Shown: positions 2 to 12,196 of the stretch, one piece after another
Position numbering within the stretch: the stretch's first letter is position 1
Layout: each line of letters begins with the position of its first letter
Source of the DNA: an uncultured virus (IMG/VR IMGVR_UViG_3300008114_000018)
Taxonomy: Duplodnaviria > Heunggongvirae > Uroviricota > Caudoviricetes
Strand: one strand, 5' to 3'
Virus record (IMG/VR): IMGVR_UViG_3300008114_000018
DNA length: 20,000 nucleotides
Made by a program: the position numbers and the translations under genes
The notes under the pieces: generated by a model
What the model was told of the DNA's origin: nothing
The model's database searches: none
Seen by the model: only the letters and a program-made list of their open reading frames with translations

Positions 2-364
2 GACATTATGTATAAATTAGATATTGATGGTTATTGGCATAGTATGAATGCAGGAAAACTACATGTAGCCGCTAACTTTGGTGAGATACCAAGAGTACAA
101 TTAGTTGTAAGACAATTACTAAAACAACCTAAATATACATCAGATTTTGTTCAATTAAAAATAATTCCAGCTATAGAAAGATTTGATAGTAGGTACCAAT
201 TTGATAAAACAATTAGTCCATGGTTAAATCAACATATTAAGACAGGTGATATCAGCGATTTATCAGTAGAGAATGGAATCGTTAGTATGAAACTATTTGA
301 TGGTTTTCTGATTAAATTAAATGAAATTGTGAAACCTTATTTTAAGGTAGTTCTTTCCAACTAG
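2..364 (+). CDS. C-terminal part of a 2OG-Fe(II) oxygenase-like protein (Asp/Asn beta-hydroxylase-like DSBH) with a C-terminal extension; 5' truncated
   Basis: Frame is open from position 2 (GAC ATT ATG), so the gene likely starts upstream. 'LHVAANFGEIPRVQLVV' fits the distal His...N.G...R motif of DSBH oxygenases and resembles 'WHGSANFG' in 3039..3575. The HxD motif would lie outside the window. Confidence 0.6.
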   Translation, partial: DIMYKLDIDGYWHSMNAGKLHVAANFGEIPRVQLVVRQLLKQPKYTSDFVQLKIIPAIERFDSRYQFDKTISPWLNQHIKTGDISDLSVENGIVSMKLFDGFLIKLNEIVKPYFKVVLSN

Positions 365-911
365 GGTATTTACTTAAACTCTCGTAAAACTTGTCAGGGA
401 ATATCTGCCATACAGTCTGATCTATTCCCCTATAGAATACATCTTTGACTTTCTTAGCGATACCCATTTCTTGCAAAGTAGGAAAGTAAACTTTATGTAC
501 TAAACTTTGTTTACCTACTTTACTATCATTACTTGTAGCATATAACCTGTCCGTATCAGCCCACTCAATACACTGTGGCATATAATACTGATCTGTAACA
601 TGTTGATGCGTTTGTATTCTTTTATAAGGACTTATTAATCCTTTTTCCAATGCTGTAATCTCAGGAAACACACAAACTCTACTTAGTATCCTATAACTAC
701 CATCGCCCATAACATCGTCAAATGTATGTGCTGCTACTGATCCAACTGCTTTATCATCTTGATATAGTACCCAAACATTCCATCGTTCTTCTTTGCGGAA
801 GCAATCAACCATAACATGTTGACTGCTATTGTTTAGAAAGCCTTTACTTTCAGCAGTTCTATAAAAATCATTAAGATTGAGCTTAGGATCCCATTCTACA
901 AGTTTAAGCAT
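342..911 (-). CDS. GNAT-fold (acyltransferase-like) hypothetical protein
   Basis: 189 aa; 'WNVWVLYQDDKAVGSVAAH...YRILSRVCVFPE' follows the GNAT beta2-beta4 pattern; no clear R/QxxGxG acetyl-CoA loop. Start overlaps the stop of the upstream kinase-like gene. Confidence 0.45.
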   Translation of the reverse strand: MLKLVEWDPKLNLNDFYRTAESKGFLNNSSQHVMVDCFRKEERWNVWVLYQDDKAVGSVAAHTFDDVMGDGSYRILSRVCVFPEITALEKGLISPYKRIQTHQHVTDQYYMPQCIEWADTDRLYATSNDSKVGKQSLVHKVYFPTLQEMGIAKKVKDVFYRGIDQTVWQIFPDKFYESLSKYPSWKELP

Positions 912-1593
912 ATATCTCTTTAGCCTTGTTTATAAAATCTATAGGATAGTTGTTACTAAAACTATCAAAGCATAATATCTGTGCTTTTTGTAGGGGTGTA
1001 GGTTCGTCCCAACTTATACCTTTACTTTCACTGTATTTTTGTAACTCTAGTCTACGGTTACTACTAATATGACTTAGTACATCACTTATCTTTATTGTTT
1101 CTTCATCACCGCTGTATGTGAAAAAATAATTGATGCTTTTTAATTTACCATCAACAATAAAGTAACTACTAGGATGCATACTAAATTTATATAAGTTTAA
1201 ACTTCTGTGTGCTTTGATTATCTCTAGCATTTGTTCTTGCCAGTCGGGTAATATATTATTATAGTTTTCTTCCAAACAGCCTGATTGTTCCCAAAAATCA
1301 TCACCATCTACTTCTAAGTAAATCTTCTTATTAATTAAATCTATTTCTCTAATATTAGGAACTAAATCAGGAAACTCTTTACTCATAAGATAAATGTATT
1401 GTAGTTCTCTATCCCACTTCTCTTGCATCTTTTCGGGATCAACGACTTCATTCATACCCTTATGATAGTCTGTATCATTGTGATACCATTTTACAAATGT
1501 TTTCTTGTCATCAGACATTAAACTTGTATAGATTAAATTATTTCTGCACTGACCAATACCAGGCACATTATTGTAATAGTAAGAATAGCTCAT
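904..1593 (-). CDS. Protein-kinase-like fold protein with degenerate catalytic motifs (pseudokinase-like)
   Basis: 229 aa with ordered kinase landmarks: 'TFVKWY' (beta3 Lys), 'WDRELQY' (alphaC Glu), 'VPNIREID...KIYLEV', 'LYKFSMHPSSYFI' (catalytic-loop position), 'KSINYFF' (DFG position). Paralogous to 3572..4195. Confidence 0.6.
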   Translation of the reverse strand: MSYSYYYNNVPGIGQCRNNLIYTSLMSDDKKTFVKWYHNDTDYHKGMNEVVDPEKMQEKWDRELQYIYLMSKEFPDLVPNIREIDLINKKIYLEVDGDDFWEQSGCLEENYNNILPDWQEQMLEIIKAHRSLNLYKFSMHPSSYFIVDGKLKSINYFFTYSGDEETIKISDVLSHISSNRRLELQKYSESKGISWDEPTPLQKAQILCFDSFSNNYPIDFINKAKEIYA

Positions 1594-1606
1594 ATAAATA
1601 CTTATA
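1593..1606. promoter_or_regulatory. Overlapping divergent T4-late-type promoter boxes: TATAAATA (+, 1593-1600) and TATAAGTA (-, 1606-1599)
   Basis: Exact T4 late consensus TATAAATA upstream of the + strand ORF at 1630, and a one-mismatch box on the - strand ending 5 nt before the ATG at 1593. The region is AT-rich, so chance is possible. Confidence 0.5.
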
Positions 1607-1629
1607 ATTCAAAATAGGGAACCAAAAAA

Positions 1630-2439
1630 ATGATCAGAGGTATCGGTGGCAGACCATATGTAAACTTAGATGAATTTATTGATATTGAAAAATTTAAAAG
1701 TTTACATCCAGAAATAATGCATGGATTTGCTACAGCAAGACAATTCGCTAAAGAAGGCACTTGGATGAAGCCAGGCTTTGATACTGCAAAAGGCAGTTAT
1801 CAATATTTTTGGAAACCTATTTACAAAGCAGTTGAAGAATATCTAGCATTACCCGATGACGATCCAATTAAAGTAGGTGGTTGGGATTTATATACAAGCA
1901 TTAAAGATCATCATACTAGAAATATATTCACACGATATTTAAAAATGGCAATGGGTGCATATGACCCATACATTTATTATTTCTTATGGGAAGAAGGTAG
2001 TTGGGACGATAGAACTGCACCTAGAAAATTAACAGAAGAAGCTGTACACTTTCCTAATGTTGTGCAATGGATTGAAAGCATGGTAGGAACAGTCTTTGAA
2101 GATGTGGGTAGAGTTATTTTCTTTCATTGTGAAGCAGATGGCATACCTTTTGAACACAGAGACCTAGATGCCAAGAACGGCGTTATGGATGAAAACATGT
2201 ATAGCCCACATAGAAATGAATTCATACATCTAAGAGCAAACACAAAGAAAGGATTCTATGTATGGGATCCTGATGCTAAAAACAAATATTTCTTAAACTG
2301 TCACGCAGCTTGGTGGAACGACCAAGACTGGCATGGTGGCGAAAGAATAATGGAACAGAGTTATAGTTTACGAATAGACGGAAAGTTTACTGAGGATTTT
2401 AGAAAACAGATTGGTGTTGATCACTTAGAATACTATTGA
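1630..2439 (+). CDS. 2OG-Fe(II) oxygenase-like protein (DSBH)
   Basis: 269 aa; 'GRVIFF...PFEHRD' (HxD), 'WWNDQDWHGG' (distal His), 'SYSLRIDG' (basic 2OG-binding position). Confidence 0.65.
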   Translation: MIRGIGGRPYVNLDEFIDIEKFKSLHPEIMHGFATARQFAKEGTWMKPGFDTAKGSYQYFWKPIYKAVEEYLALPDDDPIKVGGWDLYTSIKDHHTRNIFTRYLKMAMGAYDPYIYYFLWEEGSWDDRTAPRKLTEEAVHFPNVVQWIESMVGTVFEDVGRVIFFHCEADGIPFEHRDLDAKNGVMDENMYSPHRNEFIHLRANTKKGFYVWDPDAKNKYFLNCHAAWWNDQDWHGGERIMEQSYSLRIDGKFTEDFRKQIGVDHLEYY

Positions 2440-3042
2440 TTTAGCTTCTTCTAACACTGTTTCTATTTTGTCGCTACCTGTAATTCTTTTTATTTCATTG
2501 ATTGTTTTTTCAGTTAATTTAACTTTGTATTCAATCTGATGAATTTTAGGGTGTTGTAGCCAAAATTCAATACTATCTATAATATCTTTGTAGGTAATGC
2601 TGTAATCACTATCAATTCTAGCAGGACTATGATCACTGAGTGTTGATTCAGCAAATGCTATTTTTAATAGCAAGATATTAGCGATTCGTTCATCATCAAT
2701 TATACCAATTTTTCTACTAGTTTCTTCTAATTCTAATTTATTAATTATATTTTTTCTACCTAATACTTCTTCATAATCTGTAACAGCACTGCCCATAACA
2801 ACAATATTAGGTGTAATAGTTGATGCCTTAATTAATAAATCTATTTGACTTGATAAGCCATCAAATGCGTTATTGATGAATAAATCTGCTGTCATTACAT
2901 GATCTAATATTTTATCAATATCAGCTTTTATATCGTAGCCGTTACTACGTGATAATCCTATTACTTCATGTCCGACATTCTCAAAATAATCGTAACATGC
3001 TTTACCTATACCCTTTGTGTGTCCTGTAATTACTATTTTCAT
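2425..3042 (-). CDS. Short-chain dehydrogenase/reductase (SDR)-like protein, atypical active site
   Basis: 'KIVITGHTKGIGKA' (TGxxxGxG), 'GLSRS', 'LFINNA', 'VVMGS'; the YxxxK position reads NIINK. Confidence 0.8.
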   Translation of the reverse strand: MKIVITGHTKGIGKACYDYFENVGHEVIGLSRSNGYDIKADIDKILDHVMTADLFINNAFDGLSSQIDLLIKASTITPNIVVMGSAVTDYEEVLGRKNIINKLELEETSRKIGIIDDERIANILLLKIAFAESTLSDHSPARIDSDYSITYKDIIDSIEFWLQHPKIHQIEYKVKLTEKTINEIKRITGSDKIETVLEEAKSIVF

Positions 3043-3575
3043 TCGTATGCCAAATAATTAAATTGATATTTTACTGTGTATCCGAAGTTAGCACTACCAT
3101 GCCAATCTTTGTAACTATGCCAACGATACACATCCCCTTGTTGCCCACCTACTATGGCATAGTTACTGACTACTGCAACTTGCCCAGTTCCATCTTTGTT
3201 GATTCTTGCTGTATATCTCACTAATGAGCCTTTGTTTTCATACTCATCCGCAAAATCATCTATGTCCCAATGCCATGGTGCAGTACAACCAGGATTGATT
3301 CTGCTTATCCATGCTCTTGCATAATTAGTATTACCTACAAACTCTCCAAATAGCTTATCTATATTTGAATCATAATCTTTGTTTGGATAGTAATTAATCC
3401 ACTCTGCACTTTCTTTTAGATAGTTACTGTCGATTGATAGTTGTTTAATTTTTATAAACTCAGGGTGATCCCAATCCCAACGTGGTAGTGCAACACCTGG
3501 TTTGTTTTCTATACTGTTGATGACTTCATCCCAGTTGATTATATTACTACAATTTCCTATGTGGGTTGGACTCAT
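3039..3575 (-). CDS. 2OG-Fe(II) oxygenase (Asp/Asn beta-hydroxylase-like)
   Basis: 178 aa; 'WISRINPGCTAPWHWD' (HxD) and 'WHGSANFGYTVKY' (distal His, Lys at the Arg position). ATGA overlaps with both neighbours. Confidence 0.75.
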   Translation of the reverse strand: MSPTHIGNCSNIINWDEVINSIENKPGVALPRWDWDHPEFIKIKQLSIDSNYLKESAEWINYYPNKDYDSNIDKLFGEFVGNTNYARAWISRINPGCTAPWHWDIDDFADEYENKGSLVRYTARINKDGTGQVAVVSNYAIVGGQQGDVYRWHSYKDWHGSANFGYTVKYQFNYLAYE

Positions 3576-4195
3576 AGAATTTCAGTAAGCATAACACCCC
3601 ATTCAGTGATATGCTTTTTAACGCCTTGTTCGTAAAACACAGTAAGGTCTACATTGTCACCGAATGTACTTTCAAGCCAACGGTCTTGACTTTTTTGACC
3701 TATTACATGTTTCAATATATGCACGGGGACAGTTGCTTGCGCTTTGTCAACGCAAGCATACATATCAAAGGTATGTAATGTATTATCTTTGATATAAAAA
3801 CTATGCGGTTGTATAGTAAGTTTAATAAAATTATTTGATTCTAAATCTTGTATAATTTGTTTTAATTGTGATTTCCAATCTATACAATGATCTTCTAAAG
3901 CACGATTGGTAAACAATACATTGTTACAAGATTCTGTAAATTCTATAAAAATTTTCTTAGTTGAAGTATCAACATGTTTAACTACTGGTGCCCAAGAATA
4001 ATTTTTAAATTGCTCTAAGTATTTTAATTCACGATCCCAATAAAATGAATTATCAAAATCTATTCTAGCATTTCCGTAATCCATGCATAATGTGCCACTA
4101 TCTTTATCTAACAATGGCACATATACATGATTAGTATAACTGGGTACATCAAAATCTAATCTAAAAACTTCTTCCCAATTATCTGTGTTATACAT
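3572..4195 (-). CDS. Protein-kinase-like fold protein with degenerate catalytic motifs (pseudokinase-like)
   Basis: 207 aa; 'WDRELKYL...WAPVVKHVD...KKIFIEF...DWKSQLKQII...FIKLTIQPHSFYI...LHTFDMY' aligns motif by motif with 904..1593. Confidence 0.6.
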   Translation of the reverse strand: MYNTDNWEEVFRLDFDVPSYTNHVYVPLLDKDSGTLCMDYGNARIDFDNSFYWDRELKYLEQFKNYSWAPVVKHVDTSTKKIFIEFTESCNNVLFTNRALEDHCIDWKSQLKQIIQDLESNNFIKLTIQPHSFYIKDNTLHTFDMYACVDKAQATVPVHILKHVIGQKSQDRWLESTFGDNVDLTVFYEQGVKKHITEWGVMLTEIL

Positions 4196-4317
4196 TATTT
4201 CTCCGTTTTAGAAATCATTGCTCTGATTTTTGTTTCAAGCATTTTAGCCCAAAATGGTTGTGGGAAGTTCCAACCTATAAATGCTCCTACTAATATCCAT
4301 AAAAGTGTATCTAACAT
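4195..4317 (-). CDS. 40-aa small membrane protein (not in ORF track)
   Basis: Manual translation MLDTLLWILVGAFIGWNFPQPFWAKMLETKIRAMISKTEK*; AAGGAG Shine-Dalgarno upstream; TAATG stop/start overlap with the next gene; fills the gap exactly. Confidence 0.85.
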   Translation of the reverse strand: MLDTLLWILVGAFIGWNFPQPFWAKMLETKIRAMISKTEK

Positions 4318-4328
4318 AATATAGCTCC

Positions 4329-4712
4329 TTATTGTAAGTTATGTTTTTGTTTATAATCGTTCACTGCTGCTTTGATAGCATCCTCCGCCAGTATTGAACA
4401 GTGAATTTTGACTGGCGGTAAAGCCAACTCCTCTGCAATTTCCGTGTTCTTAATTTCTGTAGCTTCCGTAAGTGTTTTGCCTTTAAGCCATGTCGTGACC
4501 AACGACGAACTAGCAATCGCCGAACCACACCCATAGGTTTTGAATTTTGCATCGGTGATAGTTTCATTTTCTACCTTTATCTGAAGTTGTAGGACGTCTC
4601 CGCAAGCCGGGGCTCCAACTAAGCCTGTTCCTACACTAGGATCATTTTTATCTAACTTACCTACATTTCTAGGATTTTCATAATGATCTAATACTTGACC
4701 TGAATATGCCAT
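4329..4712 (-). CDS. iscU: Fe-S cluster scaffold protein IscU
   Basis: 'DHYENPRNVG', 'GAPACGDV', 'FKTYGCGSAIASSS', 'LPPVKIHCS': three Cys ligands, conserved Asp and the HscA-binding LPPVK motif. Confidence 0.97.
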   Translation of the reverse strand: MAYSGQVLDHYENPRNVGKLDKNDPSVGTGLVGAPACGDVLQLQIKVENETITDAKFKTYGCGSAIASSSLVTTWLKGKTLTEATEIKNTEIAEELALPPVKIHCSILAEDAIKAAVNDYKQKHNLQ

Positions 4713-5231
4713 TTAAAACGTTCCTTCCTTTGTTTCTACAACTAACCAACCTAATTTAAATAAATCTTCTTTTACTTCATCAGTGACTTCACCTTCACCA
4801 ACATAATGTTTAGTTAAGTCACCATCATCGTGACGTATGCCACTACAGTACCAATCCATGTAATCACCTTCTCCAGTAAGGTCAGCGACAATGCCGCCTG
4901 CATAACGCCAACTGCAAGTCCATACTTCATCTTTTAAAATAGGCATAACATCATTGCGTTGGAACTCATTATTGCATAATGCTGCGTAAATATTTTGTGC
5001 GTAGGCTCTATTTTTGCATTTTTCTACGATAAGTTCACTACTACGCAAATCGTATTCTAAGTTATTCTTTTGCCATTCTGGATCATTCTCTAAAGCCATT
5101 TTATCTGCTTCAAAGTTAATGTAAAAGTCTGCTAGTTTTTCCTTCATATCATCTTCATAGGTATCAGGAATTCTAGCAATTCTATTTTGTAGAGTTTGCT
5201 CTCTGTGTTTACTTATAGCTAACTTCTTCAT
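4713..5231 (-). CDS. Hypothetical protein with Trp/Cys motifs
   Basis: 172 aa, abuts iscU; motif-like 'YAALCNN', 'WTCSWRYAGG', 'GDYMDWYCSG'. Function not recognised. Confidence 0.7.
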   Translation of the reverse strand: MKKLAISKHREQTLQNRIARIPDTYEDDMKEKLADFYINFEADKMALENDPEWQKNNLEYDLRSSELIVEKCKNRAYAQNIYAALCNNEFQRNDVMPILKDEVWTCSWRYAGGIVADLTGEGDYMDWYCSGIRHDDGDLTKHYVGEGEVTDEVKEDLFKLGWLVVETKEGTF

Positions 5232-5646
5232 TGTTGACTTCTATCCAAGTATGATCACCTAAATATTGCACCTGTGTTATATACTCATAACTATCAGGTA
5301 CCCCTGTTGTCCAATCATTCGGTCCCATTGGTATAAGAATATTTTTCTGTATCTTGTTATCAAATGCTAACCAATATGTTTTACCGTGAAACAATTGAAA
5401 TTTATATTCCGCAGCATGTACCATATCGGTTATATCAAGTCTGCGCTTTAACTGCTCTGCTTGTTTTTGTAATACAGTAACAAGCTCCATAATTCTGTTG
5501 TATTCTTGCTGAGCATACATTCTTGCTGTATTCAGCATTAAATCTTTTTGTTGTTTTACTGGGACAAGCTCAAACTTCGGAGCCCCAATATCCATAGGAT
5601 ATGTTAGGCTATGATGTTTATCGGGGTCCGAAGGTTTTAGTCTCAT
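5209..5646 (-). CDS. DUF2452-like protein
   Basis: 'SLTYPMDIGAPKF...QQEYNRIMELVTVLQKQAEQLKRR...AEYKF...GKTYWL...PNDW...LGDHTW' matches my recollection of DUF2452. Start moved from 5700 to the ATG at 5646, which forms an ATGA overlap with the upstream gene. Confidence 0.7.
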   Translation of the reverse strand: MRLKPSDPDKHHSLTYPMDIGAPKFELVPVKQQKDLMLNTARMYAQQEYNRIMELVTVLQKQAEQLKRRLDITDMVHAAEYKFQLFHGKTYWLAFDNKIQKNILIPMGPNDWTTGVPDSYEYITQVQYLGDHTWIEVNNEEVSYK

Positions 5647-5882
5647 TGTCTGTAACAAATAACGTGAAGTATTCCGCCTAGTGAAACAAAGGCTACCCAC
5701 GTATTTAGTGTGTATGGTATAGCAAGACTTGGGAACAATGTGTTAATTGCCCAAATGCCTACTATTGGACTAAGAATAAAAAAGCCCAATATTAATAACA
5801 TAGTAACTACAGTGCCCAAAAGCGGACCAAACATTGCTCTTGTTCTTACTGCGTTTCTTTTCATACTAATACCTTTAAGCAT
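5643..5882 (-). CDS. Small membrane protein (about 2 TM segments)
   Basis: Hydrophobic stretches 'LLGTVVTMLLILGFFILSPIVGIWAI' and 'WVAFVSLGGIL'; overlaps both neighbours. Start could be 5882 or 5864. Confidence 0.7.
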   Translation of the reverse strand: MLKGISMKRNAVRTRAMFGPLLGTVVTMLLILGFFILSPIVGIWAINTLFPSLAIPYTLNTWVAFVSLGGILHVICYRQ

Positions 5883-6607: not shown

Positions 6608-8827
6608 TTATAAATTCTCTAAGTCGTCCCAACAATCACAGTTACAGTCTATAACCTCTTGAGCCGCTGCTTCTACTGTGTTGATATGGACAATTACATT
6701 TGAAGATATATCAAATATATCTAAATTTGAAGGGATAAGCGAAGTTTCGTTAGATCCTGCGAAACTACCTGGTTCCAATGCTGCACCTGTAACCTTTGGT
6801 ACACTTAAATTCCCTGAGGGCACAATTGGTTTATCGTCTGGTACATCATTATCCAGAACACCTCCTGCTAACCCTAACCTTTTTGCGTTGCGTGCCTCTC
6901 GCATCGCCGCAATTATACTTTTTCCTCCTATAGTTGTGTCGCTTATTTTCTCAAGTGTGGCTGCAGCCATTCCATACCCGGTATCTTCAGCATAATTATC
7001 TAAATTCTCAGCAAATGAGTACAAGTCTAATTGATTTGCACTGTCATTCGCCGTTATAAAGCTATTTCTAGCATTTATCTCTATAACTAATTGTGAACCT
7101 AAATTTCTCCACAATGTATTTAACTCTTGTGCTAAGGCTGACTTAGCGTTTCTTATATTTGTTATCTCTGTGTTTGCCTGTGTAATTAAAGTAGTCAAAA
7201 CACTGTCGTTGTTTCTTGCTACATTTAATTCTGTAACCATGTTTGTATAAATTTGCTTTAACGTAGATGTTTGTAATTCCAAAACCAATGCATTTATTCT
7301 TGCAATCTTATAAGGTATTCCACTCATTGAACCAAAAAAGTCGTTGAATATATAACTACCGTCAACTCCACTTCCTTTAGCAACGTTCTGTATGATTGAA
7401 TTTACGTATGCAGGATCGTTTGGTGTTGTTGTACCATTTATACCTGTTATGTCGCTAATTGATTCCATGTTAGTCACAACCTGCGCAAACTTTTCAATAT
7501 CCATTGTAGTGATGTTTTTAATTTGTAGCATACTACGTTTGAATGCGTCATTTGCAACTGCTATGTTTTCTGGTAAAATAACTTTTAAATCTGTGCCATA
7601 ATCTTTATTTAATAAAGCACCGTTAGTTCCCTTACCAGAAAATATAAATTGATATATCTTACTGTTCGCTCTTGCTGTTGTAGTATTATAGATTGGAGTA
7701 GTTAATGAATTTCTACTGACTGGAAATAATTTAGCAACATCAAGTAAATCAACTAAACTATTTAAATTTTGTGTTTGAGTATTGAGTGGTATTAGTACCT
7801 CATTTAATTCTTCACCCATAACTAATTTAAATGCCTCATAGATTTTCTTTTCTTGTTCTATAGTAGGATTAACTGTTTCTTGAGTTAGGTCTAAAATTTC
7901 CTCTGTGGTTAATCCAGCTGAGACTAAAGCAATGTTTACTGATTCAGTAATAGCATTGTTCTCTTGTAATGTAATCAATAAACTATATGGACTACCAAAA
8001 CTATCTAATTTCTTTAAATCTAATGCTTTACCTAATCTTATTAAGTCTTGACCAAAAGACAAAGTAGCTAATGACACGCCGGTAACATCACCAGTAATCA
8101 AATCATTCATGTTGCTGTAAGTGCCATTAAGAAAGCCAACTGAGTTAGTTATGCTATTGATAGTTTTATTCAACTGCTTAATCATACCATTAGCTTGTGT
8201 AAAGCTTGATATAAAATGAGGATAAGTGCCTCTATAATAATAAAACTCTTTACTCGCTTGTAAAGCTAAAATTCTTAAAAAGCCATAACTAGAACCTTCA
8301 TCAGTAAATATTTCTACTTTACTTCCTTTAGGCGGAGATACAGTAAAACTCAAAAGATTATTATTTACATTATATGTTGATGTAGCTTGTGTTACGCCAT
8401 CTATCTTGACTGTATAAGGTGATCTTCCTGTACTAGGAGTTATTGTATTATTAGTTGGTGCTAGATGATTAAATCTGAAAACATTTTGTTCGCCTAATAG
8501 CAACCAGCTATCATAGAAAAAAGGATTGTATGAAATCGTAAACGTATCTGGTGGGCTATTACCCAATGCAGGTATTGTAGTTGAACCAATAGAAATTAAA
8601 TTATTATAAACACTTTGACTTACATTACCGCCTATCTTAGTCCATGCCAATCTTATTGCATCAGACAACGAATTACTAGTAGCGAACCCACCTTTCACGT
8701 AATGGTTAGGTGAGTTACTCACACCAGCACCGTCAGTGATACCAGGATTAATTCTAAATCCTTCGTTTTTTATTAATCCTGTTACTGCGTTGATGCTTAG
8801 GGGAGTATGTTTACCTTGAAGGCTCAT
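6608..8827 (-). CDS. Large hypothetical protein, probably virion/baseplate-associated
   Basis: About 739 aa from the ATG at 8827 (ATGA overlap with the PAAR stop); N/T/S-rich; beta-sandwich-like insert; helical C-terminal half; ends 'VIDCNCDCWDDLENL'. Confidence 0.6.
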   Translation of the reverse strand: MSLQGKHTPLSINAVTGLIKNEGFRINPGITDGAGVSNSPNHYVKGGFATSNSLSDAIRLAWTKIGGNVSQSVYNNLISIGSTTIPALGNSPPDTFTISYNPFFYDSWLLLGEQNVFRFNHLAPTNNTITPSTGRSPYTVKIDGVTQATSTYNVNNNLLSFTVSPPKGSKVEIFTDEGSSYGFLRILALQASKEFYYYRGTYPHFISSFTQANGMIKQLNKTINSITNSVGFLNGTYSNMNDLITGDVTGVSLATLSFGQDLIRLGKALDLKKLDSFGSPYSLLITLQENNAITESVNIALVSAGLTTEEILDLTQETVNPTIEQEKKIYEAFKLVMGEELNEVLIPLNTQTQNLNSLVDLLDVAKLFPVSRNSLTTPIYNTTTARANSKIYQFIFSGKGTNGALLNKDYGTDLKVILPENIAVANDAFKRSMLQIKNITTMDIEKFAQVVTNMESISDITGINGTTTPNDPAYVNSIIQNVAKGSGVDGSYIFNDFFGSMSGIPYKIARINALVLELQTSTLKQIYTNMVTELNVARNNDSVLTTLITQANTEITNIRNAKSALAQELNTLWRNLGSQLVIEINARNSFITANDSANQLDLYSFAENLDNYAEDTGYGMAAATLEKISDTTIGGKSIIAAMREARNAKRLGLAGGVLDNDVPDDKPIVPSGNLSVPKVTGAALEPGSFAGSNETSLIPSNLDIFDISSNVIVHINTVEAAAQEVIDCNCDCWDDLENL

Positions 8828-9105
8828 GGGCAAAAGACGTTTGGACTTCCAGTAACAATGCTATGACCGCAACTGTTACCTGATCCAACACGTAAGACTG
8901 GACAATTCTCTGCAAACACAGTTGGGCTACCATCTGTGGTTGTTGCTGCTGCATGTGGGGGATGTGGTTTTCCAAAGGGTGCGTGTGGTGTTATCTGACT
9001 TACATGTAATCCTACAGGAATTCCATTGGCAAAAACTGTGCCGGCTCCACGCATAATGGCTCCACCCGGTTGATCTGTATCTCCTTTTCTGCTTAGTTGT
9101 GGCAT
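8824..9105 (-). CDS. PAAR-domain spike tip protein (T4 gp5.4-like)
   Basis: 93 aa; 'SRKGD', 'GAGTVFANGIPVG', 'GSPTVFAENCPVLRVG...CGH...GSPNVF'; His/Cys ligand candidates; GAGAGGT SD. Confidence 0.9.
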   Translation of the reverse strand: MPQLSRKGDTDQPGGAIMRGAGTVFANGIPVGLHVSQITPHAPFGKPHPPHAAATTTDGSPTVFAENCPVLRVGSGNSCGHSIVTGSPNVFCP

Positions 9106-10990: not shown

Positions 10991-12196
10991 TTAGAATTGA
11001 TCGTGTTCGGTTGAAGTTTTGTTTGCTACGGTTGACGTTGCACCAACAGCTTCACTAATTAAGTCAAAATAACTAACACCTACTTCACGTTGATGTTTGA
11101 CTGTAGTAAATCCTCTGCTTTGTGCCGCAAACTCACGTTCTTGCATTTCACTGTAGCCAGCCATACCTCTTTCTTTGTATGCTTCTGCTAATTCGAATGT
11201 GGCGAGATTTACACTGTGGAAGCCTGCAAGTGTAATGAATTGGAACTTATAACCCATAGCACCCAATTCACGTTGGAATGTTTCGCACTCATCTTCACTT
11301 AAGAATTTACGCCAATTAAAACTTGGGCTGCAATTATATGCAAGCATTTGATCTGGATATACTGCATGTATTGCGTCAGCAAACTTCTTAGCCTGTTTCA
11401 AATCAGGTGTAGAAGTTTCAAACCACAATAAATCTGCAAAAGGAGCATATGCAAGGCCACGACTGATGCAAGCATCAATTCCATTTCTGAATCTGTAGAA
11501 TCCTTCTTCTGTTCTTTCATTAGTGACAAACTCCTTATCTAAAGGATCATGATCGCTTGTAATTAATGTAGCTGCCTCTGCATCTGTTCTTGCCATAATC
11601 ACAGTGTCAACACCTGCAACATCTGCTGCTAGTCTTGCTGCATTAAGTGTACGAATCATTTGACTTGTTGGTACTAATACTTTACCACCAAGATGTCCGC
11701 ATTTCTTTTCGCTTGCTAACTGATCTTCAAAGTGTACTCCTGCTGCACCTGCCTCAATCATGTGCATCATTAATTCATATGCATTTAATGCACCACCGAA
11801 GCCTGCTTCAGCATCAGCAACGATTGGCAAGAAGTAATCTACATCAGTCTTACCTTCGCTATAATCAATTTGGTCTGCTCTACGAAAAGCATTGTTAATA
11901 CCTTTTACTACTCTAGGAACACTATCAACTGGATATAAACTTTGATCTGGATAGGTAGTATTACTTGTGTTGTTTGCTGCTGCTACTTGCCATCCACTCA
12001 AGTAAATTGCTTTTAATCCTGCTTTAGCATGTTGTACTGCCATTTGACCATTATAAGCACCCAATGTGTTAATGTATGGTTCTTTGTGAAGCAAATATCT
12101 TAATTTTTCTGCGCCTCTTTTTGCAAGGGTGTGTTCAATCTGTACTGTACCTTGTAACTTTCTTACTGTGTCCTGTGTGTAATTACGCTTAGTCAT
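10991..12196 (-). CDS. aceA: Isocitrate lyase
   Basis: '[10 protein letters not shown]', 'YPDQSLYP', '[12 protein letters not shown]', 'HFEDQ', signature 'KKCGHLGGK', 'ARTDA', '[10 protein letters not shown]', '[10 protein letters not shown]', 'HQREVG'; AAGGAG SD. Confidence 0.97.

Follow-up and report, generated by a model that had tools for sequence, protein, structure and literature searches.

Two branches of a minimal protein-kinase-fold family with a replaced catalytic loop in a phage enzyme island

What would a phage do with two copies of a small protein that is built like a protein kinase and lacks the residues with which kinases transfer phosphate? The question is raised by a stretch of 20,000 nucleotides from the uncultured virus record IMGVR_UViG_3300008114_000018 (IMG/VR; Caudoviricetes), hereafter the window, in which two open reading frames (ORFs), A and B, lie among putative tailoring enzymes. 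A represents one, and B the other, of two branches of a family of minimal protein-kinase-fold proteins, in which the catalytic loop has given way to another, strongly conserved set of residues. The two genes and the segments that matter most here (as translated) are:

904..1593, minus strand: ORF A, 229 amino acids; A-type minimal kinase-fold protein with Asn at the DFG-Asp position
1126..1188, minus strand: catalytic-loop and DFG-equivalent segment of A, K136 to Y156, KFSMHPSS...INY
3572..4195, minus strand: ORF B, 207 amino acids; B-type (ancestral-type) minimal kinase-fold protein with Asp kept at the DFG position
3761..3823, minus strand: catalytic-loop and DFG-equivalent segment of B, K125 to M145, KLTIQPHS...FDM

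Both are real open frames and they are paralogues, BLASTP aligning them with 48.1 bits (E 1e-11, identities 37/140). An earlier, sequence-only reading of this DNA had called them so from a handful of shared motifs, all of which are present in the translations where it had placed them: WDRELQY at A 60-66 and WDRELKY at B 53-59, P-x5-D-x3-KKI-x2-E at A 79-94 and B 70-85, DW..Q...II at A 117-126 and B 106-115, FVKW at A 33-36 opposite LCMD at B 36-39, and the loops KFSMHPSS...INYF (A 136-157) and KLTIQPHS...FDMY (B 125-146). Neither protein has a model match in Pfam (0 families at E<=0.1), PHROGs, NCBIfam or PADLOC, and the family as a whole is unannotated in these four collections. Searches with tblastn against 50,697 cultured-phage records returned no match for either; the BFVD matches listed were giant-virus and other viral kinases only, with no annotated close phage relative among them, and titles and abstracts on phage pseudokinases and kinase-like proteins held nothing on this family. 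Family members are about 185-235 amino acids long, and the source names listed for them read "hypothetical protein", except for one "calcineurin-like phosphoesterase family protein".

Do such unannotated proteins fold as kinases at all? The AlphaFold2 models, for which 73-row alignments served as input, reached a predicted local distance difference test score (pLDDT) of 94.2 and a predicted template modelling score (pTM) of 0.91 for A, and 94.4 and 0.90 for B. Foldseek placed the model of A next to TTK (1.6e-6), Bud32 (2.1e-6) and IRAK3 (5.4e-6), and that of B next to Bud32-Kae1 (1.2e-6), Ark1 (4.8e-6) and WbdD (1e-5). The Foldseek-independent search VIA gave, for A, Rio1 1zp9 (Z 12.6, 165 residues aligned, root-mean-square deviation (rmsd) 3.0) ahead of IRAK3 (Z 12.4), and for B, IRAK3 6ruu as top match (Z 13.6, 187 aligned, rmsd 3.4), with RET 2ivt at Z 13.8 over 185 residues in a second look. 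All the Foldseek and VIA matches listed for the two models are kinase-fold proteins, with 165-190 residues aligned and Z 12.6-13.8; since many kinases score within 1 Z unit of one another, no kinase subfamily stands out for either protein.

The same relationship emerges from sequence profiles. A 20-row profile built from A-type (15) and B-type (5) sequences found human TTK/Mps1 at E 2.8e-4, spanning A residues 27-167. A 70-row family profile, from which three canonical-looking members had been removed, found Staphylococcus aureus PknB (4eqm) at 1.3e-6, together with Bud32 (8.6e-5) and the archaeal kinase Ark1 (1.7e-3); adding those three rows back brought TTK to 5.1e-9. Outside its own clusters, the protein-language-model neighbours of A were small bacterial RIO1/ABC1/APH/Kdo kinases (score 0.96-0.97), and the few Pfam matches among 73 family members were to Pkinase (3), ABC1 (2), APH (1) and RIO1 (1). 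Sequence profiles, predicted structure and the Foldseek-independent search are thus three independent routes by which A and B are predicted to adopt the kinase fold, as had been suspected from their motifs. Modelled fold and sequence homology together place them in the protein kinase-like (PKL) fold superfamily, and a predicted kinase fold combined with the loss of canonical residues fits the definition of a pseudokinase, in which at least one of the canonical Lys, Asp and Asp residues is missing.

The loss can be followed residue by residue. Kinase positions were assigned from HMMER alignments of the family profiles to TTK and PknB; the functional roles of these positions in kinases are textbook knowledge.

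HRD His position: K136 in A, K125 in B
Catalytic Asp position: S138 in A, T127 in B
Catalytic-loop Lys position: H140 in A, Q129 in B
Loop Pro position: P141 in A, P130 in B
Mg-binding Asn position: S143 in A, S132 in B
DFG Asp position: N155 in A, D144 in B
αC Glu position: E63 in A, E56 in B
β3 Lys position: W36 (not K35) in A, D39 in B

The canonical H-x-D-x-x-x-x-N is found neither in A (K-F-S-M-H-P-S-S) nor in B (K-L-T-I-Q-P-H-S), the β3 (VAIK) Lys is absent from both, and no GxGxxG glycine-rich loop was found in A, in B or in the family consensus, the A-type having only a P-[GN]-x-G turn. The DFG Asp is present in B and is Asn in A. The sequence-only reading had laid the loop over H-x-D-x-x-x-x-N and DFG, and the alignments to TTK and PknB reproduce that placement. 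Its assignment of a retained β3 Lys to A fails, because K35 merely adjoins the column, which falls on W36: among the 54 distinct A-type genes of our locus sample, position 35 holds Lys in only 5 and Gln in 48, and W36 is present in all 54. With the GxGxxG loop, the β3 Lys, the catalytic Asp and the Asn all missing, canonical Mg-ATP phosphotransfer is unlikely; the A-type is, we infer, the poorer candidate of the two, since it is also without the DFG Asp and has Trp in the Lys column.

Is this set of replacements a peculiarity of one phage, or the rule? An exhaustive hidden Markov model (HMM) search of 1.84 billion representatives returned 132 family members at E<=0.001 (representatives at 50% identity), 85 of them at E<=1e-10. 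With A as the query, 2757 clusters (90% identity) were found at E<=0.001, of which the best 120 share 59-100% identity; B as the query had only four close relatives. Column counts were taken over 61 rows, namely 59 members of 185-400 amino acids plus A and B, and are given here in A numbering. The HRD His position (136) is Lys in 55 rows, His in 3 and Arg in 2; position 140 is Tyr in 42 and His in 9; Pro occupies position 141 in 56 rows and His position 142 in 43; the Asn position (143) is Cys in 27, Ser in 15 and Thr in 12; the DFG Asp position (155) is Asp in 49 and Asn in 8; and position 157 is Tyr in 48 and Phe in 9. The αC Glu (position 63) is kept in 57 rows and Tyr22 in 54. Two columns are loose: that of the β3 Lys (N17/D14/H8/S5) and that of the catalytic Asp (position 138; S21, N17, T14, A6, D3). 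The family motif therefore reads K-x-x-x-[YH]-P-[HS]-[CST]-[FY]...[DN]-x-[YF], and the family consensus K-x-x-x-Y-P-H-[CST]-F...D-[FY]-Y. Of the K-x-[ST]-x-[HQ]-P-x-S loop first noticed in A and B, the Lys and the Pro are thus conserved across the family and the [ST] is not. Homologues with canonical motifs, which would speak against a rewired site had they been the majority, amount to only 3/61 rows: P0234, P0245 and P0248 combine an H-N-D-[IM]-[KH]-[PE]...[ND] loop with D-[YF]-G, and they are the most distant members (E 2.6e-6 to 1.8e-4). No locus was found for P0245 and P0234 in viral contigs or metagenome contigs.

A finer view comes from 82 related viral loci, which were gathered with B alone and the alignment A1 as queries (the alignment A3 being without a conserved stretch) and which contain 124 family genes, 90 of them distinct once 34 identical copies are dropped. 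These 90 comprise 54 A-type genes, 31 with Asp at the DFG position and 5 with another residue there. The A-type loop, K-[YF]-S-M-H-P-S-S-Y-F...N-Y-F, is found in 54/54, and between K136 and Y156 it varies only by Y/F at position 137. The 31 Asp-type genes hold the Lys in 31, the Tyr in 30, the Pro in 31, the His in 26 and the Cys in 25, and B, with Gln129, departs from the Tyr of its relatives. Such uniformity in the A-type, together with the family-wide Lys and Pro, gives good support to the view that the rewired loop is held by selection rather than left by decay, as the sequence-only reading had argued on the strength of the two copies in the window.

The history that it had sketched from those copies, one of complementary losses and parallel substitutions, is revised by the family. 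Both A and B are without the β3 Lys, and most of the family has Asp at the DFG position, changed to Asn in the A-type clade; complementary losses are not supported. In a quick maximum-likelihood tree of 60 rows (P0207 dropped), the six A-type representatives form one clade on a long stem (Shimodaira-Hasegawa-like approximate likelihood ratio test, SH-aLRT, 99), B nests in the large group of Asp-type rows, and a split with support 97 sets the three canonical rows apart from the remaining 57. The rewired loop is common to all 57 non-canonical rows, and so would have been inherited rather than acquired in parallel, provided that the tree is rooted on the canonical branch, which is also where midpoint rooting happens to put the root. 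If it is so rooted, the tree shows the rewiring of the loop to predate the A/B split. By the same token, the A-type appears as a later, very uniform and very abundant offshoot, and the B-type as the older and more diverse form. Outside the A-type clade, P0156 and P0174 show the Asp-to-Asn change at the DFG position twice more.

The family appears to be phage-restricted. A scan of 185,579 bacterial and archaeal species, one genome per species, with the pattern K-x-[SAT]-[LI]-Y-P-H-C-F-[FY] gave one locus, a 4.9-kb contig of a metagenome-assembled genome that carries the module known from the phages, with SPASM radical SAM, Cpz10-like, B-type and cupin-like genes. In myophage-like aquatic phages, A- and B-type genes are a constant component of a tailoring island with radical-SAM and cupin enzymes. 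In the window, the genes around A and B are the following:

2..364, plus strand: C-terminal part of a Cpz10-like Fe/2-oxoglutarate (2OG) β-hydroxylase homologue, the 224-amino-acid gene being cut by the window start
342..911, minus strand: 189-amino-acid gene, its first 8 nt shared with the end of A
1630..2439, plus strand: 269-amino-acid gene, divergent from A, with invariant H176-x-D178...H235
2425..3042, minus strand: SDR-like protein of 205 amino acids, of which only the N-terminal Rossmann part matches
3039..3575, minus strand: 178-amino-acid cupin/2OG-oxygenase-like gene, its first 4 nt shared with the end of B

To follow these neighbours, the ORFs of the 82 loci were labelled by BLASTP with the window proteins; dereplication by kinase-fold protein removed 22 duplicates and left a linkage set of 60 A loci, together with 36 distinct B-type genes. 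The B-type genes have cupin hydroxylase-like genes on either side. The 178-amino-acid family lies directly downstream on the same strand in 25/36 cases; its H102, D104 and H159 are invariant, hhalign relates it to the Cpz10-like family at 85%, its profile finds Cpz10 (7v4f) in the PDB at E 0.035, and weak Pfam matches among 45 members point to Asp_Arg_Hydrox (2), Cupin_2 (2) and WelO5 (2). The protein is probably a cupin-type oxygenase. Directly upstream of B-type genes, in 13/36 cases, stands the 224-amino-acid Cpz10-like family, a full-length gene of which is found in a related locus (L003:4779-5450) and whose profile matches 7v4f at E 5.3e-16; that entry is Cpz10 according to the available part of PMC9814697.

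A-type genes travel with the 269- and 189-amino-acid genes. The 269-amino-acid family is present in 59/60 A loci and adjacent in 23, in 16 of them divergent as in the window and in 7 directly downstream on the same strand. It has no PDB match and no Pfam match in 30 members or in the 120 relatives listed, and hhalign against cupin families gave probabilities of 0.3-2.5%; that the protein is an oxygenase would be a guess from its H-x-D...H. The sequence-only reading had placed an oxygenase beside each kinase-like gene, which is reasonable for the neighbour of B and, for that of A, unproven. The 189-amino-acid homologue lies directly downstream of the A-type gene on the same strand in 39/60 A loci; it has no match in Pfam, PHROG or NCBIfam, a PDB profile search was also empty, and there is a weak GNAT lead, GNAT family being the label of 20% of one rank-16 Atlas cluster. 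The SDR-like protein reaches Pfam Epimerase at 4.1e-4 over residues 3-73, below the cut-off, and NCBIfam SDR models at best at 1e-5, all far below their cut-offs; the SDR and epimerase models cover just the first ~70-100 of its 205 residues, and the 3' end of its gene overlaps the convergent 269-amino-acid gene by 15 nt.

Across the 82 loci, radical SAM enzymes of three kinds occur in 72, 48 and 35, the types in the island including SPASM and B12 radical SAM. Other recurrent families are Asp_Arg_Hydrox, TauD and 2OG-FeII_Oxy_5 oxygenases, SDR, metallophosphoesterase, dual-specificity phosphatase, fatty-acid desaturase and Mtd_N fibre proteins. In the same phage, a SPASM radical SAM gene and two radical SAM genes of the 337-amino-acid type lie before the window start (L001:6269-9468), so the island extends outside the window.

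Some smaller features border these genes. The divergent A and 269-amino-acid genes are separated by 36 nt, and within this gap TATAAATA stands at 1594-1601 on the plus strand, 28 nt upstream of the 269-amino-acid ATG; the string is the T4-type late promoter consensus. Upstream of B, a 40-codon ORF (4195-4317, minus strand) has a hydrophobic N-terminal half, GGAG 8 nt upstream and a stop that overlaps the ATG of B (TAATG), and L009/L010 carry a copy with 58% identity next to their IscU homologue. We considered it as a precursor peptide and rejected this, since it keeps company with the IscU gene rather than with the kinase-fold genes. The IscU/NifU-like Fe-S scaffold gene itself (4329-4712, minus strand; Pfam NifU_N 2.5e-51) adjoins the radical-SAM-rich island and has a homologue in 6/82 loci.

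What, then, could such a protein do? On the rooting given above, another fixed set had taken the place of the phosphotransfer residues by the time the two branches parted. This set begins with Lys at the HRD-His position and runs on through Tyr (His in the A-type), Pro, His (Ser in the A-type) and Cys, Ser or Thr; at the DFG position, Asp (Asn in the A-type) is followed by an aromatic residue and then by Tyr or Phe. The αC Glu is retained, the β3 Lys and the GxGxxG loop are missing, and the catalytic-Asp position is free to be Ser, Asn, Thr or Ala. Considering that the replaced positions are polar and fixed, the cleft should still be in use. A and B would then not phosphorylate proteins; the conserved polar cleft would most likely hold whatever the island acts on, or else a ligand of anionic or nucleotide type, and do so for, or jointly with, the neighbouring hydroxylase-like enzymes, rather as Bud32 serves Kae1, although here without canonical ATP chemistry. 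The A-type would be a later and very uniform specialisation in which the metal-binding Asp, too, was surrendered. We would put the chances of such a ligand-holding or partner role, without phosphotransfer and in the service of the adjacent hydroxylase-like enzymes, at roughly even.

Several points tell against it. The placement of the conserved residues in a single cleft rests on alignment to kinase positions; the 269-amino-acid neighbour shows its H-x-D...H triad without detectable homology, so that its cupin nature is unproven; the scan of cellular genomes used a single peptide pattern, and absence from cells is accordingly not proven; and the DFG Asp, αC Glu and conserved Lys of the B-type would equally suit a rewired enzyme that uses ATP.

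This last point opens onto the strongest rival, in which A and B, or the B-type at any rate, would still depend on ATP but with the active site relocated, as a small-molecule kinase or as an ATPase in the manner of Bud32 or COQ8. Lys136/125 would take the place of the β3 Lys, the DFG Asp would bind the metal and the loop His or Tyr would act as the base, and a phosphorylated intermediate would feed the neighbouring hydroxylases, much as Cpz27 and Cpz10 share the caprazamycin pathway. In its favour, the DFG Asp (49/61), the αC Glu (57/61) and the Lys (55/61) are retained; three distant family members are canonical kinases, recognised as Pkinase by Pfam (3/73); and the language-model neighbours at 0.96-0.97 are themselves small kinases. 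The genomic context speaks for it as well, with Cpz10-like hydroxylases flanking B-type genes, and Cpz27 phosphorylating an intermediate of the Cpz10 pathway according to the available part of PMC9814697. However, the GxGxxG loop and the β3 Lys are both missing, the Mg-binding Asn is replaced by Cys, Ser or Thr, the base position is variable and is even Ala in 6/61 rows, and the A-type lacks the DFG Asp as well, in 54/54 genes. On balance we regard ATP-dependent catalysis as unlikely, if well worth keeping in view.

A more adventurous thought, and one to which we attach less probability again, is that the constellation of Lys, Tyr or His, Pro, His, Cys/Ser/Thr and Asp is a new active site on the minimal kinase scaffold. 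It might carry out non-phosphotransfer chemistry, or an unusual nucleotide-dependent step, on a sugar-, nucleoside- or peptide-type product of the island, the A-type being a second, Asp-free form with a catalytic or regulatory part to play.

Could A and B instead need each other? The more degenerate A-type might be the allosteric partner of the B-type in an obligate A:B heterodimer, on the model of STRAD-LKB1. Two family members are present per record in 4/5 viral records, a B-type gene lies within the covered flanks in 36/60 dereplicated A loci, and where none is found inside 8 kb, a second member lies 9-15 kb away in 3/4 records; the pseudokinases IRAK3 and STRAD-alpha are, moreover, among the top structural matches. 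Yet the A and B genes are non-adjacent, typically 3-15 kb apart, each is translationally coupled to a different neighbour, and one 69-kb record, estimated to be 19% complete, has the A-type only, which leaves an obligate pairing improbable in our view. Finally, that A and B are functionless relics of decaying kinases, as the missing canonical catalytic residues might at first suggest, is hardly credible given the number of relatives (2757 at E<=0.001, and 132 as representatives at 50% identity), intact frames, an A-type loop invariant in 54/54 genes and conserved synteny.

The wider window is that of an uncultured phage, since the 50,697 deposited phage genomes yielded a single DNA match to it, a stretch of 135 bases in a Pelagibacter myophage with 72.6% identity. 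Its GC content is 31-46%, and besides the genes already named it encodes both ribonucleotide reductase subunits, a large virion structural protein (phrog_5838), a SleB-type cell-wall hydrolase and a PAAR-motif protein (8824-9105, minus strand; phrog_281, 8.3e-16). The last of these and a DUF2452 protein (5209-5700, minus strand; E 1.3e-5, just above the cut-off) flank lysis and structural genes. Between the ribonucleotide reductase subunit genes lies a full-length isocitrate lyase gene (10991-12196, minus strand; NCBIfam NF011645, E 1.1e-207, above the cut-off), possibly an auxiliary metabolic gene that serves the glyoxylate shunt.

Conserved kinase folds without kinase chemistry have repeatedly hidden new enzymology, and here a large unannotated family is fixed in a widespread enzyme island beside tail-fibre genes. 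Its cleft gives a definite starting point in the search for what the island acts on, and the two subfamilies, which differ at few cleft residues, provide a natural comparison. Among known systems, the nearest in build is Bud32/PRPK of KEOPS (PDB 3en9, 2vwb, 8unk), likewise a minimal bilobal fold of ~200 amino acids without a long activation segment, which is the best or a near-best Foldseek match of both models and which the family profile also finds (8.6e-5). Bud32 is the partner of another enzyme, Kae1, rather than a signalling kinase, a precedent for the role that we favour. On the other hand, Bud32 keeps the loop H-N-D and the DFG Asp where the phage family has K-x-[SNTA]-x-[YH]-P-[HS]-[CST], and the phage family has no Kae1-like partner. 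The eukaryotic pseudokinases IRAK3 (6ruu), STRAD-alpha (2wtk) and CASK (7oai) share a kinase fold with lost catalytic residues, but these are animal signalling scaffolds as opposed to a 200-amino-acid phage protein in an enzyme island, and their scores lie within 1 Z unit of those of many active kinases, which gives no ground for a specific kinship.

SelO, an AMPylase, and SidJ, a glutamylase, are alike in concept only, as kinase scaffolds with a conserved non-canonical site. They are not among the Foldseek and VIA matches listed for A and B, by which kinship is not excluded. Both keep nucleotide-binding Lys and Asp residues that the phage family lacks. The caprazamycin pathway (PMC9814697, as far as the available part goes) offers a parallel of another kind, in that a Cpz10-like gene flanks the B-type and a kinase acts in the same pathway; the likeness of Cpz27 itself to A and B is one of pathway logic only. 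As for the setting, the available parts of two papers describe hypervariable islands beside fibre genes with radical-SAM cassettes in the "host recognition cluster" of pelagimyophages (PMC7029224) and tandem dioxygenase arrays in cyanophages (PMC2938197); neither of these texts, in those parts, mentions a kinase-fold family for such islands. The A and B loci share this setting of pelagimyophage and cyanomyophage islands, with their fibre genes, radical-SAM cassettes and many dioxygenases.

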